The notes below the pieces were generated by a model. It saw only the letters and a list, made by a program, of their open reading frames with translations, had not been told where the DNA came from and searched no databases. From NCBI RefSeq assembly GCF_021028975.2, contig NC_059436.1, positions 36,022,001 through 36,086,000 on the forward strand: a DNA stretch of 64,000 nt. The letters run 5' to 3'. The position numbers were made by a program, and so were the translations under genes. Positions 1,140 through 60,276 of this stretch are shown here, in pieces; the first letter of the stretch is position 1, and the number at the start of each line of letters is the position of its first letter. The DNA is from Sphaerodactylus townsendi. Its lineage: Eukaryota.

Positions 1140-7750
<6,611 letters not shown>

Positions 7751-8637
7751 CCCTAAGAGACCAGCTACCATGGCGAACTATGGCATCATGAGAGAATGTG
7801 CAGTGTATGGATAGATGGGGTAGAAATCTGCATTGGGATGTGTGGCAATTTCATGAAACGAAAGCAGCAATGGATAAGAAGTCTTTCATGTTGAGTTTTG
7901 TGCTGCTGTTAACGTAATGCAGGGGCTCAACTGGTGGAGGTGGCTGGCCTTATAGTGGCCAGGTCCAGTCAGCAGAGACCTGAGGGCTCTTTTTGCTGAT
8001 TGAAGCACAGCAAAAACATACCTCATGGCAGAGCAGTGCCTTGTGATTCGTCCACAGTTCACACTGCTTCTACCTGGACAGTTCTTTAAAAATGCAATAG
8101 CAGGTGGATGGTATAGATTAGTTACTGCCCTGTTTCTCTCCACCCAAAATTATTTAAGTCGGTCAATCATAGTTATATTTCACTGTTTCAAGGAATGCAG
8201 GGTGCTCTACCAGGAATGAGATAATCCCATTTCAGCCCTCACAATAGCCCTGGTCATACCCAACAAGCTTCATGGTTCAACTGGGCACTTAACTTATTTT
8301 TGGAAATTAGAATGTCCAGTTATAAACAGACAGACATGAGTTCAAATTCCCATTCTGCATGAAGCTCATTGGACCCATCACTTCTTAACCTAATTTACCT
8401 CACAAAATGGAGGAGGGATAGCCACATATGCTACTTTCAACTCCTTAAGGGATAGGTATATGTGTGAGGGAGGAAATCTAACAAATTACATTAAACCTGA
8501 ATATCCCCAATCTATTATATCTTTGTTTTTTCCTTTCTTCAAGAACTTCAAGGCTGTATATGTGGGATTATACCACTTTATCTTTACACCAGTGAATGGG
8601 TTAATACAGGGAATACAGGGGAATCTGAATACCTGGC

Positions 8638-11074
8638 ACAGACAGAAATTCCCAAATACTCATACTAAGATCACAGTATAAAGCTTTAATTAGGCAGAAG
8701 AAAAAAGCATATTCTAGATGCCAATGGGAAGCACTGGCCCAAGCCGTGACCGAGAAAAACGAAGCCCATTTTTGGGCATTGGTCTCATCTGGGATGGGTT
8801 CATGCTGCACAGTTTTAAATGCACAGATACCTGGTGACATTTGGTTTAAGCATTTCTCCCAAATTTTCGATTCCTCCTTGATCCCTAAGTTACTCCCAGA
8901 CTTAACAAGAAAGGGTGCTTTTGATGACCTGCGCCTATCTCCAAATTGGCCTTCAGTAAGGGAGAAAGAAATAGAGAACTTGATCAGTTCTATTAAAACC
9001 GGGAAAGCTCCCGGTGAAGATCTGATTCCGAATGATGTGTTCAAAACATTTCCATCCTGGTGGGTACCAATTCTTGCCAAACTTTTCACCCAGATTAACA
9101 ATACTGGCAATTTCCCTAGTGGATGGAAAACCAGCATAATTGTCCCTATACATAAAAAAAGGAGACAAAAATGACCCAAAGAACTATCGCCCAATAAGCC
9201 TATTGAACACGGCCTCTAAAATATATGGCAAATATCTCCTTGGAAAATTAGAAGATTGGGAAATTGAAAATCACATAATACATCCACAACAGGCAGGATT
9301 TAGGAAGGGACAAGCTACAGTTGATCACTGCCTTGTATTATACCAACTAGCTCATTCAGCCATAAGAGGCCCAACGAAGCCTTATATACGGCATTTGTTG
9401 ATTTGGCCTCTGCTTTTGACTCAGTATGTAGAGAAAGACTCTGGTGGAAACTGCTGAACACAAATATGGATAAACGCTTACTTCTCCTTATTAGAGAGCT
9501 GCACGAGGACACATGGATCAAAAGTCAGAGTAAATACATCAGGCTCTCTAACAGATGGGTTTAGAGCAGGAAAGGAGTCAAGCAGGGCTGTTTACTTGCC
9601 CCCACCTTATTCAACCTTTTATATTAATGACATAATTCCCAAACTGACCGCCATGAATTTGTTGCCTCGCTAGGAAAACAGAAAATTTCAATTCTGCTAT
9701 ACGCAGATGATATGGTCCTAGTTTCACTTACAAGGAATGGTTTAAGGAGACTCCTATATGGTTTGGGTGAGTATTGCAGAGAGGAGGCCCTCTCCATAAA
9801 CTATTCCAAAACTAAGGTAATGGTGTTCAAGAAAAGACCAAGAAAATACAGTTGGAACATCCATAATATTCCTATAGAGCAATGCAATAATTTTAAATAT
9901 TTAGGAGTTACATTCAGTCCTTCACTAAATTGGAATGCCCATTTAGCAGTGGTCAAAGCAGCTGCTCAAAAAATCTGTTAGCAATAGTGAGATTTTATCA
10001 TACAAAAGGAGGTCATTTAGTTGATCCAGCCCTAAAAAATTTTAAAATTAAAGTTATACCTATGCTACTCTATGCTATAGAGATTTGGGGATGGAATGTA
10101 CAAGTCCTACATAAAATAGAAACTATTCAAAACTTCTTCCTTAAACGCATTCTGCTACTCCCCCAAGGAACGCCAGCTGCCCTCCTCAGGGCAGAACTCG
10201 GTTTGCCTTCTATTAAAGCTCGAGCTGAATTGGCAATCTTGAAATACGCTAAAAAGAGTTCACTAAAACCAACTTCGTTTGGGAATCAAAGTTTGCAGAT
10301 ACTACTTAAGGCCTCGAATTACATAATACCCCCTAAATAATATATTGCTCAGTTATTCTGTTCCAGATCATTTATTCTCTTCACCAATTTTAAATCACGA
10401 CCTTCGGGACTGGATATTCAAAGGGGATAACTGTATGGACAGAGATATAATTTTACATTCCAAGTTTGCTCCCTGGTATAGTCACCTTAATTGGTATCAT
10501 CACAGAGCCCCCTATCTTGCTGGCATTACTCAGTTTAAGATAAGGAACGCTATGACAGCATTGCGATTTCAAACAATGCCAACAAATTATTTAGAAGGCA
10601 GATATGCCAAAATACCAGCTGAACAACGAATTTGTATCTGCAAACAGGAAGTAGAGGATTTACCTCATTATGTTCTGAACTGCCCCTGTAAGAGCCTAGG
10701 GCTAAGTTTTTGAATAGTTTTATATCCCTGTCCCAGGTATATTATGACTCAGACAAATTATACCTTCTCCTTGCGGATTTGGATCCCTATATATCCTATA
10801 GGGTTGGCCTATTCGCCTTGGCAGCTACAAAGATTCGCTCCAACAATGTAATAAAGCAAATGATCAAACCTAAACTGGTTTAAGTTAGGTGGGAATACAA
10901 TTCAGACATATTGTAGGGGGGAAAGTGAAAGATTTAGTGTTCAATGATGGATTTTTAGTGAATTTTTTTTCTTTTTTTTCTTACCTGTTGGAATAACAAG
11001 TTGGCTCAGAAGTTGTAATGTAACAATATTGTAATACTGTAATGGCCTATGGCTTTCAATAAAATTGATGATGA
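8638..11074 (+). mobile_element. 5'-truncated non-LTR retrotransposon, probably RTE-X clade, with frameshifted RT
   Basis: RT pieces GKAPGED, NYRPISLL, QAGFRKG, GVKQGCLLAPTLF, LLYADDMVL and FKYLG, plus C-terminal RICICKQEVEDLPHYVLNCP. It ends in AATAAA plus a (TGA)n tail and has a 12-bp TSD TGAATACCTGGC at 8626-8637 and 11075-11086. Confidence 0.85.
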
Positions 11075-11397: not shown

Positions 11398-12497
11398 GTA
11401 TAAAAGATGACACAGACCCTCAGCAAACCAGACAAATAAGTATTTCTGTGCAAATTTTACAGGGAGTGCCCCATCAAATAATTTTCAATACATTAATTTC
11501 CAAGTTTTTTAAAATTAACCCATCACCACACACAAGCTTCCCTTACAATAGACAGCATTCCAAAATTCTCTACACAATTAGCCACGTGGTAAGACTCAGG
11601 TGTCAAGATCAGATCTGCGGAATAGATTAGTTTCAGGTATTCAGGGCACCGCAGCAGCATCTACAGTTAGTGGGTAGGTCCATTCGGAGGTTCAGAGTTG
11701 TTCAGTTCTTGGTAAGAGAGTGGGGAGGGGGCATTTCTTGGGTCTTTCATTGGTAGGTAATGATGGTGCTTTCCCAGAGGTGGTAGAGCTGTCACACCTC
11801 TTCATTCCAGCTATGCAGACTCAAGAGTCAGATCACTTGTCTATTTAGCTGAATAACCCCCACTGTGACTGACAGCAGCTCTCCAAGGATGCCTCCGGCC
11901 CAGCAATTTGAGATCCTTTAACCTGGAGAAGTTGAGAGGTTAGAGCTCCTCCTTCCCTACTGCATTGTGTAAGTGCATAATACAGGACAGCCTGAGAATA
12001 GTAGCCCTTGATTTTTTATTTAAAAAAATAGTTTCTAGTCCACATAGTTGTAAAGTTCGGCTTGAAAGCCAGTTGACCATACCTGGTGGAACCTCACAAG
12101 CAACCAGTAGACTGAGCAGAACTTCCATGGTTTTAAAGGTGCCAGACCTGTGGTTTGTCGTCATTCCAGAATTCTGCAATACATGATACTTATTTTGGAC
12201 TAATTTTGTTTTAGAACCGAACACCCCCTCTTCTCTTGAATATTTAAAATGGATCCTTGACCGTGCACTTACCAAGAGCCATTACCTCTCCTTCCTATAC
12301 TGAAGGCTCAGTAGGAAACAACAAATTTACTCTAAAACGTAGAGACAGCTGATACAGGCCCAAGTTGCCAGTGTCTCCCAAGAAGGAAAATGCAGCTGGT
12401 CATTTACACCTGCCTGGTATACATTTGCGCGTGCACACACACAAAACCCTTCAAGCCAGGTACTGAAAATAAACGTTGAAGGAAACTCTGAACCAAT

Positions 12498-13085
12498 CTA
12501 GACACGGTGTGGCAACCCAAGAATCAGAGCTGCAGGCAGTATTACCAACACAAAGAGCAGGGCAGCAGCACAGAGAACAGTGGGGTAGTTTTCCAATAGA
12601 AGACGACCCACCTCCCGATATACAGATCTGCGGGGTTGAGTGCTAATGAAGTTCTGGGGTCGATTGTCTTGGGAGATGGCTTTGTACAAATCCACTGTCA
12701 CGAGCATCTGCACGCCCGGCTCGTTAGAGTCCCCTGGGAGCTTTTTCAGCCAGCACAGGTGAAATCCATCCATCCAGACCTCTTCAAGCTCTCGCATCCA
12801 TGGAGGGAACTGCTGGATGACTTCCATGTTAGCTGGGAAGCTGGGGACCCCTTTCTGGGGAAGAGGGATGCTCTCTCGGCAGAGGGGGCACTGAAAGGTC
12901 TGGTTTGGCTTCAGGAAGGCACATAGTCTGGCCAAACACTCGAAGCAGAAGGTGTGAGAACATGGCAAAAGCAAAGGGGTGTTGAACACGTTGTTGTAGG
13001 CAAGGTAGCAAATGGGACACTCGGGAGTAGATGCCTCCGTCTGCTCTTGCCCAGTTTGGTTTGCAGGAGTAGCAGAAACATCCAT
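12498..13085 (-). CDS. Intronless RING-HC E3 ubiquitin ligase with C-terminal transmembrane helix (RNF183/RNF223/RNF225 family paralogue), 195 aa
   Basis: Intact ORF with C3HC4 RING (CPIC...CSHTFCFEC...CPLC), family motif VWMDGFHLC and hydrophobic tail TVLCAAALLFVLVILPAALILGL. A minus-strand AATAAA lies at 12015-12020. Confidence 0.85.
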   Translation of the reverse strand: MDVSATPANQTGQEQTEASTPECPICYLAYNNVFNTPLLLPCSHTFCFECLARLCAFLKPNQTFQCPLCRESIPLPQKGVPSFPANMEVIQQFPPWMRELEEVWMDGFHLCWLKKLPGDSNEPGVQMLVTVDLYKAISQDNRPQNFISTQPRRSVYREVGRLLLENYPTVLCAAALLFVLVILPAALILGLPHRV

Positions 13086-13955
13086 CGCTTACCTCTTCCC
13101 CCTGTCCATTTCAGCAGCTGCTTAGTACCAATTGGGCTCAGAGCTATTTTCCAGACTTCCAGGGGATGAATGCTTCTCTCTATTTCAGCGCTGTTGCTGA
13201 AATGATAATCTGCTATATTCCTTCAATGGCCTTTTCTTCTCCTCTCACAAGAGGAGGTCTCACCAACCACAAATTCAGATGGCCAGCAAAACATCCCTCT
13301 CATCTGTCAACACATCTGCAGATTCTAGCAGTACTGGGAAGGTCTTATGAGGGTCTTCCCAGCTGCTTCGTATATCCAATATTCCACAGGAGCACAGACG
13401 TTCCAGATGCCAAGGTTACCTCTGACTGCTCTATGGATCTCTGAAGCTCTCCAGTCCAATTCTCAAGCCCAGATCCTGGGCCTCCAATCTGTTGGAGAGT
13501 CTTGGCAACAGATAGTTAGCTCCAAATGTTTCTTTCAGCTTGAGCCAATAAGTTCCTCTCCTAAGCAACCGGGACTTGTCCAAGCTAGCTTGTCCGGTCT
13601 GGCATGATGAGGCAGAGAGAGCAAGCAAACAAAGCAAGTCAGTTATGACCAGGGCCAGTTATTCCATAACAGAAAACTGCTGCCAATCCTGGGGAGTAGC
13701 TGTGGGTTTGCATGTTTGTTGCATTCACACTTTAAACGTGTCCCTAAAAATGTAACCAGGGAGACACACTAAGCATGTGCCCAAGGAAAACCAAGGTAAG
13801 ATGCAAAATCATCTGCCTTACATACATTTAAAAATATCCAGTTTCCAACATACTGTGAACACACTAGCAAGACAAAGCAACAAATCTCACAGTGATGCTG
13901 TATAGATTAATGGTTAGAGCTATGCTGCTAGAAGCAAGTCTGCATCAAAATGGTG

Positions 13956-14603
13956 TGACCACACTTGGAGTACTGTATTCAGTTCTCGTCGCCACATCTC
14001 AAAAAAGATATTGAAGATATAGAAAAAGTGCAGAGAAGGACAACGAGGATGATTGAGGGATTGGAGCAACTTCCTTATGAGGAGAGGCTGCAGCGTTTGG
14101 GACTCTTTAGTTTGGAGAGGAAACATCTGAGGGGGGATATGATTGAAGTCTATAAAATTATGCATGGGGTAGAAAATGTTGACAGAGAGAAATTTTTCTC
14201 TCTTTCTCACAATACTAGAACTAGGGGGCATACACTGAAAATGCTGGGGGGAAGAATTAGGACTAATAAAAGGAAACATTTCTTCATGCAACGTGTGATT
14301 GGTGTTTGGAATATGCTGCCACAGGAGGTGGTGATGGTCACTAACCTGGATAGCTTTAAAAAGGACTTGGACAGATTTATGGAGGAGAAGTCGATCTATG
14401 GCTACCAATCTTGATCCTCCTTGATCTGAGACTGCAAATGCCTTAGCAAACCAGGTGCTCAGGAGCAGCAGCAGCAGCAGCAGGCCATTGCTTTCACATC
14501 CTGCATGTGAGCTCCCAAAGGCACCTGGTGGGCCACTGCGAGTAGCAGAGTGCTGGACTAGATGGACTCTGGTCTGATCCAGCTGGCTTGTTCTTATGTT
14601 CTT
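13956..14603 (+). mobile_element. CR1 LINE 3' fragment
   Basis: ORF2 C-terminus EYCIQF...LEKVQRR-like...YEERLQRLGLFSLE...RGDMIEVYKI, a (TTCTTATG)n tail, and TSD AAAATGGTG at 13947-13955 and 14604-12 equivalent position 14604-14612. Confidence 0.9.
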
Positions 14604-18126: not shown

Positions 18127-18711
18127 ATGACTGAGAAGCAGAGCCAGGGGCCAGCAGCTGACTGCCCCATTTGCTGGAATCCCTTTGACAACACTTTCTG
18201 CACACCCAAGGTGCTCCAGTGCCAGCACTCCTTCTGTATCGAGTGCCTGGCTCACCTGAGCCTGGTGTCTACAATGCGGAACAGGCTGCAATGCCCACTC
18301 TGCCGCCACCCCACCGTGCTCCCCTCCAACCAGACCATTACCGAACTGCCCACGAACGATGCTGTCTTGCGCCTTCTGCGCTTGGAGCCCAACCACATCA
18401 TCCTGGAAGGTCGGCAGCTGTGCCTTAAGGAGCAGCGCAAGAGCAGATACTTCTTGCGACAGCCAAAGGTCTATACCCTCGACCTGGGCCCAGAGACAGA
18501 CTCGAGCTCTGCAAGCCGCCAGGATCTGACCCCCCTGGGGGGCACTGCCACCACAATCACCACCCAGCCCAGTAGCACTTCACTCCTGAATTGTGTCCGT
18601 GACCCCCAGTTTCGCCTTTTCACCTACTTAATGGCCATCATCTTGAGTGTGACTTTGCTACTCATATTCTCCATCTTCTGGACCAAGCAGATTTTTTGGG
18701 GCATGGGCTGA
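18127..18711 (+). CDS. RNF183: E3 ubiquitin-protein ligase RNF183, single coding exon, 194 aa
   Basis: MTEKQ...CPICWNPFDNTFCTPKVLQCQHSFCIECLAHLSLV...LLRLEPNHIILEG...SRYFLRQPKVYTLDLGP...PQFRLFTYLMAIILSVTLLLIFSIFWTKQIFWGMG* closely matches human RNF183 as recalled. A splice acceptor tttcccag ends at 18068 and the true ATG is at 18127. Confidence 0.95.
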   Translation: MTEKQSQGPAADCPICWNPFDNTFCTPKVLQCQHSFCIECLAHLSLVSTMRNRLQCPLCRHPTVLPSNQTITELPTNDAVLRLLRLEPNHIILEGRQLCLKEQRKSRYFLRQPKVYTLDLGPETDSSSASRQDLTPLGGTATTITTQPSSTSLLNCVRDPQFRLFTYLMAIILSVTLLLIFSIFWTKQIFWGMG

Positions 18712-21812: not shown

Positions 21813-33392
<11,580 letters not shown>

Positions 33393-57400: not shown

Positions 57401-60276
57401 ATAAAACAAGAATTTAAAAACTTTTATACAAAATTATATAATAAAAAAGAAAGTCTTAGCGAAATTAATTTAATAAATAATGTGAAGCTAAAAAACTACA
57501 AATGGGATAAAATAGATGAAGATTTTAAAATTATTAAATAAAGATATTACTAAAGAAGAAATTATTGCAGCAATTAAAAATTAAAATTAAATAAAACACC
57601 GGGCCCTGACGGCATCTCGAATTTATTTTATAAAAATTCACAGAGGATATTATAGAAATATTAGTAATAGTATATAATAATATTGTTCAAAATGGTGTAC
57701 CTGAATCGTGGAGAATGGCGAACATCACATTGATACCAAAGGAAGGAAAAGATAAATCAGAGACTATAAACTATAGCCCAATATCTCTTTTAAATTCTGA
57801 TTACAAGATATTCACTTCAATTTTGGAAAATAGATTAAAAGAGGTTCTTCTATAAATAATCAAACTGGCTTCCTTCCAACAAGACACATGAAAGACAATA
57901 TCCGTACAGTAGTGAACATTATAGAGTTTTATGAAAATCATACGGATAAACAAATGGCTTTATTTTTCTTGGATATGTTTAAAGCTTTTGACAGCCTCAG
58001 TTGGAACCTGATAAATGAAGTTTTATGTAGGAAAAACTTTGGAGAAATTTAGACAGTGGATTAAACAAATATACTCGGCACAATATGTGAGAATTATAGT
58101 AAATGGGGAAAAAACAGAAAATTGTGAAATAGAATGTGGAACCCATCAAGGCTGTCCCTTGTCCCCATTATTGTTTATTTTAGTGTTAGAAATTTTGATA
58201 GATAAAATTAAAGAGACTGATAGTATAAAAGGGACTAAAATTAAAGGGGGACAATTTAAGATCCAAGCATACACGGACGATTTAGTAATTATTTTGGAAG
58301 ACCCGATAGGGTCTATAGTGGAATTAAAAAAGATATTAGAAGAATTTGAGATAATATCTGGTTTAAAAGTGAATAGGGATAAAACACAAATATTAGTTAA
58401 AAATAGGAGGAATAGTGATAAAACACTTTTAGAAGCTATATGGCAGGGACAGGCGAAGAAAGTGAAGTATTTAGGTATTAACTTAACTGCATCAAATTTA
58501 AGACTATTTGAAAATAATTATTCAGTAATGTGGAATAAGATTAAAAAAGATCTTAAAATCTGGGGGAAATTAAATCTGTCTATATTAGGCAAAATAGGAG
58601 TATTAAAAATGAACATGTTACCAAGAATGCTTTTTTTGTTTAATAATTTACCAATATTAAAATCCGAGAAAATTTTCAGTACTTGGCAAATAGACAATTT
58701 GAAATTCCTTTTTTGGGGAGGGGGGAACCCCGGGTTAAATATAAAGTCCTTACAGATAATAAGGAAAGAGGAGGCCTGGCAGCTCCAAACTTAAAATTAT
58801 ATTATGAAGCATGCTGCCTGGTCTGGTTGAAGGATTGGTTCTTAATTAAGAATAAGAGATTATTAGCAATTGAGGGGGCGGATCTGAGATCTGGAACACA
58901 TGCATACCTGTGGTTTCATAAAGAAAGGCTGAATAAACAATTTTTTCAGCATCCCTTTAGGTTTGCTCTGTATAAAATTTGGGACAAATACAAAAATAAA
59001 TTGTACAGGAATGTGCCATGGTGGATATCTCCCCATGAAGCTCTTTTGAACAAGAATGTTTTGGAGAAAGGATGGTTAAAATTCTATGATTTATTAAAGT
59101 TGGTTCAGACAGAAAAAGGGCCACGGGTAGAAATTAGAACGATGGAAGAATTAGAAATGGCTGGATGGAAAGTGAATTGGTGGCTACATCAACAACTGTA
59201 TAGCATTATAAAGAAAGAATTGATCCCACTGTGGATTCAAGGTTTTGAAGATACACTTTATTTAAATCTTTTGAACAAAAATGATCTAATTAAACGGATG
59301 TATAATCTGTGTTTAGAATTAGATAGGGAAGACGAAGTAGTAAAAGAATACATGATAAATTGGGCCAGAGACATTGGTCACACAATCCCATTGGAAAAAT
59401 GGGAAAAAGTATGGAAATCAGGATTTAAAAATATTATTAGTAATGCTATTAGAGAAAATCTTTACAAGATTTGGTTTAGGTGGTACATTACACCAAAACA
59501 ATTGGCTAAATTCATTTGTACATCCAACAAATGTTGGAAATGCAAGTTGGAAATAGGAAGTTTATATCATATGTATGGGAATGTAAGAAGGTTAAGAAAT
59601 TTTGGTGTGGTGTACACAAGGAAATTCAGAAAATTTTAAAGGTAAATATAAAATGCACTCCTGAATTATATAAGGAATGTGTGACAATAGGCAAATAACT
59701 GAAAACAGAACATTATTTCAATACTTATCAACGGCTGCTAGGATTACGCTAGCCAGATATTGGTGTCAACAGACAATTCCCTCGATATTGGAGTGGCGAC
59801 AGAAAGTAATGGACCTAGTTAAAACAGCAAGTCTATCAGGATGTGAAAAGTTGGAGACTAATGGGAAATTGAAGAATTTATGGTTATTATGGATTAAATA
59901 TATCGAGAAGTCAAAACAAAAATATGTGATCTTAGATATAATTTAAGAAGTATAAGAAATAATAGAAATACAAAATAAATATAAGTATTAGAATAAAGTA
60001 ACAAACGTTGTTAGGTTGGTATGTAATTGCGGAAGCTCATTAAGTTTATGTTAAAATGAAAATGGAACAATATGGTAATGTTATAATATATTAGGACCTT
60101 GTAAATAGATCATGATTTTATTTTGGATGTATATGTGAACACTTATAACTGTAAATACAATAAAGCAATTTAAAAAAAGAAAAAGAAAACGGTCTTTTTA
60201 TATTTTATATATACCAATTTTATGGTTGGGGGTCACCACAACGTGAGGAACTGTATTAAAGGGTTGAGAACCACTG
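54407..60276 (-). mobile_element. SPIN/URR1-like hAT MITE split by the L1 (halves 54407-54479 and 60187-60276)
   Basis: TIRs CAGTGGTTCTCAACC and GGTTGAGAACCACTG with an 8-bp TSD AGCTAGAT at 54399-54406 and 60277-60284. The internal sequence is the reverse complement of the 11232-11397 copy. Confidence 0.88.
54480..60186 (+). mobile_element. Full-length L1 LINE (~5.7 kb): CpG-rich 5' UTR, ORF1 about 55150-55955, ORF2 56236-59946 (EN, RT, CCHC) disrupted by frameshifts and stops, poly-A tail
   Basis: ORF1 has a coiled coil and RNLPRDILIGF. EN motifs are WNVNG, CLQETH, IYAPN, GDLN, SRLD and SDHNP. RT motifs are QGCPLSPLLF, YTDD and KYLG, followed by CWKC...H. AATAAA and an A-tail end the element, with TSD AAACGGTCTTTTT at 54467-54479 and 60187-60199. 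Confidence 0.93.

Follow-up and report, generated by a model that had tools for sequence, protein, structure and literature searches.

A RING finger gene beside RNF183 in a gecko probably belongs to a separate vertebrate lineage of membrane-anchored ubiquitin ligases at least as old as sharks

Does the DNA between a WD40 gene and RNF183 in a gecko hold an additional RING-type ligase gene and, if so, to which gene of other vertebrates does it correspond? The question arises in the window, the 64-kb stretch of Sphaerodactylus townsendi DNA analysed here, where an open reading frame (ORF) on the minus strand had been read as an old tandem paralogue of the RNF183/186/223/225 family, retained in reptiles and lost in mammals. 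We consider it probable that its product, P0001, represents in the gecko a separate RING lineage, at least as old as sharks, and that it is likely a membrane-anchored ubiquitin ligase. We will refer to this lineage as clade X. The coordinates of the relevant features are given in Table 1.

Table 1. Features of the window around the clade X gene (positions are those of the 64-kb stretch).
Feature	Position	Strand	Evidence or remark
Exons of the upstream WD40 gene (ends unmapped)	1140..6680	plus	homology
AATAAA, candidate poly(A) signal, 477 nt 3' of the stop	12015..12020	minus	sequence motif
Coding sequence of the clade X RING-transmembrane gene (RNF223-like; protein P0001, 195 aa)	12498..13085	minus	ORF reading
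Single transmembrane helix predicted near the C terminus, residues 170-188; tail of 7 residues	12522..12578	minus	hydropathy, model
Post-RING module, residues 79-133, a putative surface for substrates or partners	12687..12851	minus	alignment, predicted structure
C3HC4 RING, residues 23-69, and Arg70	12876..13019	minus	Pfam, alignment, model
RNF183 orthologue (P0002, 194 aa)	18127..18711	plus	tree; identical over 194 aa to Sphaerodactylus townsendi record P0039
PRPF4 exons (partial mapping), other flank	22956..27706	minus	best natural match human Prp4 419-457

The 588-nt ORF runs from ATG to TAG without any internal stop, so the 195 codons of the original prediction are intact; the absence of introns that it also claimed holds for the coding sequence only. 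Contigs from 3/3 sequencing runs, all of one study and at least one of them possibly the source of the window, span the ORF free of gaps, and the ORF is no assembly artefact. The DNA of a single relative has one listed change in the ORF (Q15K) and nine listed in 1,263 bases of the flanks, numbers too small to test. Upstream on the minus strand, a branch-point-like CTGAC with a pyrimidine tract and a CAG ends at 13599, approximately 510 nt from the ATG, and together with the AATAAA this acceptor-like site would imply that the terminal exon measures about 1.6 kb. The site is followed by four upstream ATGs, the last of which opens an in-frame ORF of six codons (13092-13110, minus strand) that ends just 5' of the main ATG, across a donor-like AG/GTAAGC. 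With the NFAT5/TonE consensus, we counted one such motif in 6.7 kb versus 1.5 expected, which is no signal.

Regarding the neighbourhood, we take the WD40 gene at about 1140-6680 to be WDR31, and the order WDR31, RNF183, PRPF4 is presumably the same as at human 9q32. The clade X gene and RNF183 are divergent, with their ATGs 5,042 bp apart, in agreement with the predicted distance of around 5 kb. P0001 and the RNF183 of the window share 34% identity across 100 residues (E 7e-18) and show no meaningful alignment elsewhere, as expected from the earlier description of an RNF183-like RING in an otherwise very different protein. Searching the 64-kb window for further RING-transmembrane copies or relics by tblastn with all stored proteins below 450 aa, and with four clade HMMs, we found none.

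The predicted complete C3HC4 RING at residues 23-69 was confirmed by Pfam (zf-RING_UBOX, E 9e-9; zf-C3HC4 exceeds its cut-off) and by the ligand spacing of 2-15-1-2-2-15-2, which is followed by Arg70. All eight zinc ligands and the arginine after the last cysteine are kept in 69/69 clade X members examined, that is, the 78 clade X proteins minus nine (fused, truncated or N-terminally over-extended models and one duplicate). We assume that Arg70 occupies the position of the RING ‘linchpin’ and that, by established RING chemistry, I25, L51, P67 and R70 make the contact with E2~ubiquitin. Four clade-specific residues, L38 (K in RNF223), C55, F57 and F64, are 91-98% conserved in clade X; they mark a surface unlike that of all relatives, where partner choice may be set.

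Our structure model, built from 139 sequences, has a mean pLDDT of 85.7, with residues 21-110 at 94-98; an earlier model from 24 sequences (pLDDT 66; no Foldseek match at E 0.001) was discarded. The modelled RING matches those of TRIM23, TRIM2 and TRIM32 with Z scores of 11.7, 10.5 and 10.2, respectively (rmsd 2.3-3.2, 74-79 residues). The RINGs of TRIM2, TRIM3, TRIM23 and TRIM32 (PDB 8a38, 8ams, 5vzv, 5fey) are the nearest solved folds and sequences for residues ~13-97, and the structure of the TRIM2 RING was solved together with UBE2D~ubiquitin. Unlike the TRIM proteins, P0001 has no B-box, coiled coil or NHL/ARF domain, and presents a predicted membrane tail instead. This tail agrees with the C-terminal transmembrane helix first proposed: the 19-mer 170-188 is the sole hydrophobic stretch of the protein (Kyte-Doolittle 3.0) and lies in a modelled helix at 167-190, with an amphipathic-looking helix at 154-165 ahead of it. 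A 19-mer with a Kyte-Doolittle value of at least 1.6 is present in the C-terminal half of 68/69 clade X members, and the median tail has 6 residues.

Between the RING and the tail, the model shows a module with a short helix and three beta strands (103-106, 109-115 and 126-132). Its VWxxGxxLC motif is common to clade X and RNF223, and the two clades have the same majority residue at eight positions (G79, P81, P94, V103, W104, G107, L110 and C111). This segment had been compared with RNF223 and RNF225 alike; the eight shared majority residues uphold the first comparison and not the second, since RNF225 and its sister clade carry R at 104 and 107. Besides, the G79/P81/W104 motif is missing from RNF183. 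No Pfam family matched the module. Among structural look-alikes, RNF183-family clusters rank first with weak similarity (TM 0.53-0.57 over ~50 residues), and no solved fold matched it when the whole model was the query. Because RING matches filled those lists, we do not claim a new fold.

The gene tree suggested as a check sets clade X apart from RNF183, RNF223 and RNF225. By FastTree, with 341 of the 372 stored proteins, clade X has a support of 0.996 and is not joined with RNF223. By IQ-TREE, with 57 rows, the support values were 100/99 for X, 100/99 for RNF183, 91/95 for RNF223 and 100/99 for RNF225 together with clade Y, and the proposal of an old, separate paralogue of the RNF183/RNF223/RNF225 group is thereby sustained. 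The 57-row tree and the AU tests were run under LG+G4, a simpler model, and long branches that meet between RNF183 and RNF225/Y prompted a warning from the program. In an earlier quick tree with distant outgroups, long rows fell inside clades and the support for X was 69; it was rebuilt without those rows. Named RNF186, RNF222, RNF227 and RNF228 sequences are outside the tree rows. Clade Y groups with RNF225, as its sister or nested in it, and has members in turtles, amphibians and teleosts; no copy of it was found within the 64-kb window.

Three known genes were considered as the orthologue of P0001 and rejected. P0001 falls outside the RNF183 clade, and the RNF183 of the window is P0002. Placing the gecko genes inside RNF223, and with it a 1:1 RNF223 orthology, was rejected with an AU p=0.002, and the chimaera carries both genes. 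RNF225 forms a separate clade in the trees and differs in its post-RING residues. The chimaera Callorhinchus holds X, RNF183 and RNF223 as three separate genes and, therefore, the split is older than the divergence of sharks and bony fish.

Members of clade X are found in NCBI as ‘RNF223-like’, ‘RNF183’, ‘RNF183-like’ and ‘RNF186-like’. The platypus protein XP_039767902.1 (P0017), with the NCBI name RNF183, has 54% identity with turtle X versus 37% with koala RNF183, and was rejected as a true RNF183 (AU p=0.026). Monotremes may be without RNF183, or it may be unannotated or missed. Regarding teleosts, proteins named RNF183 (P0364, P0369 and P0252) fall in the RNF225 or Y clades and, as there is no true teleost RNF183 among the matches listed, the teleost ‘rnf183’ labels may be wrong. 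We also noticed faulty models and labels: the poison-frog model P0007 fuses two tandem X copies, the sturgeon model P0040 has three RNF225-like repeats, and the turtle X protein P0187 carries the label ‘tau-tubulin kinase 1’.

The taxonomic range comes from a single-sequence search, which gave 36 proteins, and from a profile search, for which the best 120 of 267 matches were listed. Clade X accounts for 75 of those 120, and the listed matches extend beyond it into RNF223 and others. Among fishes, its carriers are chimaera, sharks, rays, bichir, reedfish, sturgeon, gar, bowfin and two elopomorph teleosts (eels); among tetrapods, they are salamanders, many frogs, turtles, 4/4 crocodilians seen, geckos, skinks, lacertids and platypus. 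Amphibians have two X copies, each of them grouping frogs with salamanders, and bowfin and bichirs also have two. Hence, the gene is not one retained by reptiles, as first thought, but a jawed-vertebrate gene, given its presence in chimaera, sharks, gar, bichir and amphibians. In squamates it is patchy, being found in sphaerodactylid geckos, skinks and lacertids, with none named in nine toxicoferans that have RNF183 among the matches listed; the squamate record P0006, a member of clade X, could be toxicoferan.

In this word-index search of annotated proteins, no named therian, bird, snake, iguanian or anguimorph was in clade X among the matches listed. At the protein level, platypus is a carrier, and the 75 X rows listed include neither a named therian nor a named bird. 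An exhaustive search of 50% cluster representatives, under which a therian member could hide behind a non-therian representative, returned X on top (except for the triple-repeat sturgeon model) and RNF223 next. As a control, we ran a profile search with RNF183, and 103 of the best 120 of 211 matches listed were RNF183. Among those listed, 42/103 are mammalian (34 of them named therians) and nine are named toxicoferans, with no named bird and no monotreme in the 103 rows. Since no named bird appears there either, the absence of X from birds is not controlled by the RNF183 search, and birds may have lost both X and RNF183 of the interval. A kiwi RNF225 is present in the same protein collection, which lacks a named bird X or RNF183 among the matches listed.

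Judging by these sequence searches, the X lineage likely disappeared from therians, from birds and from most teleosts, as it perhaps did from snakes and iguanians. Platypus keeps X and, therefore, the mammalian loss is therian. The loss in mammals proposed at the outset thus stands for therians, with none among the matches listed, and fails for platypus; birds seem to be without X too.

Part of this picture was already in the literature. Hara et al. 2018 described 469 ‘elusive’ genes that reptiles retain and that representative mammals and birds lack (PMC5901865). Row 493 of their Table S10 (Additional file 9), ‘RING finger protein 223-like’, is the orthogroup 0003842_sub_002, with Alligator mississippiensis XP_014458145.1, A. 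sinensis XP_006022769.1, Pelodiscus XP_006117440.1 and one gar gene; a wider search across 112 mammalian and 68 avian gene sets added 1 mammal and 0 birds to this row, which names RNF223 as the non-elusive paralogue (PMC5901865). The three accessions are our P0390, P0391 and P0201, respectively, and are assigned to X by margins of 141-156 bits; the crocodile clustermate P0013 is in a 99/98 amniote clade with P0001. Clade X is this elusive orthogroup, the two sharing the pattern of 0 birds and 1 mammal, and we infer that the unnamed mammal of row 493 is platypus. Table S10 counts 0 human, dog and opossum genes in the group and keeps the gecko, alligator and turtle RNF223 separate (PMC5901865); we found no human orthologue among annotated proteins either, and the claim that the gene has no counterpart at the human locus is upheld as far as searched.

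The table also gives zeros for both geckos, anole, snakes, green turtle and Xenopus (PMC5901865), and three lineages with such a zero do carry X here. For coelacanth, lungfish, caecilian and several lizards, the annotated proteins yielded RNF183 without X; these species and the zeros for two geckos in the table indicate that missed annotation is real. Compared with clade X, row 493 holds four genes and is without lizard, amphibian and cartilaginous fish members, and the rows of the table give no synteny, duplicates or function (PMC5901865). According to this, the gene cannot be called uncharacterised as regards its orthogroup, catalogued in 2018, and can be called so as regards function, as far as searched: no functional study of the clade X lineage was found in the literature covered, in which subscription papers are largely missing. 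Kuraku and Kuratani 2011 is chicken-anchored, and its text does not mention RING (PMC3296468). What is new here is the extension of the range to cartilaginous fish, the presence in lizards, the synteny with RNF183, the duplicates in amphibians and basal ray-finned fish and the mislabelled platypus protein. Because the architecture, the ‘elusive’ pattern of a paralogue and the orthogroup with its losses (the 2018 table row) were already known, the surprise for specialists is modest.

Linkage to RNF183 was judged from record metadata in 25 named species whose X and RNF183 records could be compared, a set that covers amphibians, turtles, crocodilians, skink and bichir, with cartilaginous fish and platypus outside it. 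Both genes are linked in 23/25 species, 21 of them on contigs of equal size and two more by near-adjacent tags. The scaffolds of equal size include some as short as those of Lerista (0.2 Mb) and Terrapene (2.4 Mb), and the match in bichir is at chromosome level only. The tags or accessions of X and RNF183 are 1 apart in Chelonia (UY3_14559/14558), 2 apart in Alligator (KYO23054/23056) and Hymenochirus (014750/014752), 3 in Ascaphus (005328/005331) and 5 in Lerista (015265/015260). The two mismatches are both Xenopus, and the RNF183 record of X. tropicalis is on a 3.3-kb contig. From this pattern, X and RNF183 have been neighbours at least since the origin of tetrapods, and their neighbourhood is likely older than tetrapods. 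In Pleurodeles, the clade Y gene NDU88_011824 (P0091) is on the same contig as the X gene NDU88_011819 (P0047), five locus tags away; this arrangement, seen in one species, hints at an older three-clade cluster.

As for its origin, we lean slightly towards X being the whole-genome-duplication sister (ohnologue) of RNF223, with its adjacency to RNF183 coming from an older cluster of RING-transmembrane genes that was duplicated as a block. RNF223 (human E7ERA6, presumably located at 1p36) is the nearest clade in the best tree (88/65) and shares with X the RING, the GxP...P...VWxxGxxLC motif and a C-terminal hydrophobic helix; it differs in forming a separate clade since the pre-shark split, and it is X that adjoins RNF183. 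The pairing received 92 SH-aLRT in the outgroup tree, but two long outgroup rows fall in that branch. The RNF223 HMM also gives P0001 the highest score (121 bits versus 99 for clade Y and 88 for RNF225), the clade Y member five tags from X in Pleurodeles would suit a duplicated block, and Hara et al. pair X with RNF223 as well (PMC5901865). However, the join is weakly supported and absent from the FastTree tree, X with RNF183 has an AU p=0.42, and the shared motif residues may be ancestral.

That same AU value, together with the conserved adjacency and the local duplications at the locus (two X in amphibians, bowfin and bichirs), speaks for the tandem origin of the original prediction, in which X is a local duplicate of RNF183 predating the split of sharks and bony fish. 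This is a plausible reading, if a somewhat doubtful one: P0001 is 31% identical to primate RNF183 versus 35% to sloth RNF223, RNF183 is devoid of the G79/P81/W104 motif, and the best tree puts X elsewhere. The term tandem paralogue is, hence, right as to paralogy, while its tandem part competes with a weakly favoured sister relationship to RNF223.

Among amniotes, X diverges more quickly than RNF183, with identities of 50% versus 72% between gecko and crocodile and of 53% versus 73% between gecko and skink. Relative to chimaera, X is better conserved than RNF183 (46-53% versus 42-44%). This quicker amniote divergence fits a trend reported by Hara et al. (PMC5901865) and could mean a weakening constraint. 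It is also compatible with a lizard X that is intact but decaying or silent, heading for loss, as are the lack of a named copy in the nine toxicoferans with RNF183, among the matches listed, the four upstream ATGs that follow the best acceptor-like site and the in-frame stop just before the ATG. We regard such a decay as improbable, as both named geckos, two further gecko-like records, skinks and lacertids all carry an intact gene that keeps the eight zinc ligands and Arg70, and P0001 is 80% identical to the X of Euleptes, with the RING core almost unchanged. Finally, it is very improbable that X is a moved or diverged orthologue of a named therian gene (RNF223, RNF225, RNF186, RNF222, RNF227 or RNF228), an idea favoured by the NCBI labels and by RNF186, RNF222, RNF227 and RNF228 being outside the trees, but opposed by the rejection of RNF223 membership, the separate RNF225 clade, the absence of therians from the 75 X rows listed and the Hara table, which separates RNF223 and has 0 human, dog or opossum genes in the group (PMC5901865).

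To contextualize the possible function of a separate lineage, we compared P0001 with the RNF183 family (RNF183, RNF186, RNF182 and RNF152), described as tissue-specific, ER/lysosome-localised K48/K63 ligases of membrane and signalling proteins, with substrates that include Na,K-ATPase beta1, DR5, occludin and RagA (Okamoto et al. 2020, PMC7313026). By the same description, these proteins have an N-terminal C3HC4 RING, as does P0001, and one or two C-terminal transmembrane helices, of which P0001 has one, predicted, at a size of ~190 aa in both (PMC7313026). The close homology that defines the family (PMC7313026) extends to P0001 in the comparisons with RNF183, RNF152 and RNF182, and P0001 has a single coding exon in the window. 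Atlas placed RNF183-like (0.97), RNF152-like (0.94) and RNF182 (0.86) clusters nearest to P0001. RNF183, RNF222-225 and RNF228 figure as human RING entries (PMC13061254), and RNF223, the nearest relative of X in sequence, is itself barely characterised (PMC8551701).

Because RNF183, RNF186, RNF182 and RNF152 act in this manner (PMC7313026), we propose for X a tail-anchored E3 that would down-regulate membrane proteins in a restricted tissue; the family-wide tissue specificity, lysosome or ER localisation and ligase activity are ascribed to it by analogy. The RING would very probably bind a UBE2D-type E2~ubiquitin, with Arg70 holding the closed state for transfer, and confer E3 activity. The C-terminal tail is expected, with good confidence, to serve as a membrane anchor. 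Insertion into ER, Golgi or endolysosomal membranes with the RING in the cytosol, along a secretory-lysosomal route, seems reasonably likely, and the predicted ligase would then likely mark membrane proteins for disposal by the lysosome or the proteasome. For the post-RING module as the part that selects the substrate, we see about even chances, and a tissue-restricted, epithelial expression like that of the relatives could go either way.

Clade X is, according to these results, a vertebrate gene hidden by human-centred naming, with four different database labels. Sharks, lizards and platypus are among the lineages that keep it, whereas human, mouse, chicken and zebrafish seem to lack it. Once its identity is settled, the orthology of RNF183 is corrected, as the platypus and several teleost ‘RNF183’ records belong to other clades, and a predicted E3 becomes available for tests in Xenopus, where it is present in two copies. 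More speculatively, and in our view rather unlikely, the WDR31-PRPF4 interval would have held an ancestral jawed-vertebrate cluster of membrane ligases (X, RNF183 and an RNF225-like gene) that was reciprocally sorted, with therians keeping only RNF183, monotremes only X, birds having lost both and most teleosts both true genes. If this were true, X would add a fifth, so far unstudied, member to the lysosomal E3s of RNF183 type, one that escapes notice in human, mouse, chicken and zebrafish. The tonicity-induced kidney ligase RNF183 would then be missing from one mammal, platypus, and comparison with it could test what RNF183 does in the urine-concentrating medulla.

Elsewhere in the window, the ORFs at 8601-9174, 14049-14414 and 58015-59639 resemble what we take to be decayed LINE reverse-transcriptase fragments, and the last of them sits in the block at 56-60 kb, where the sequence is AT-rich and strongly skewed.
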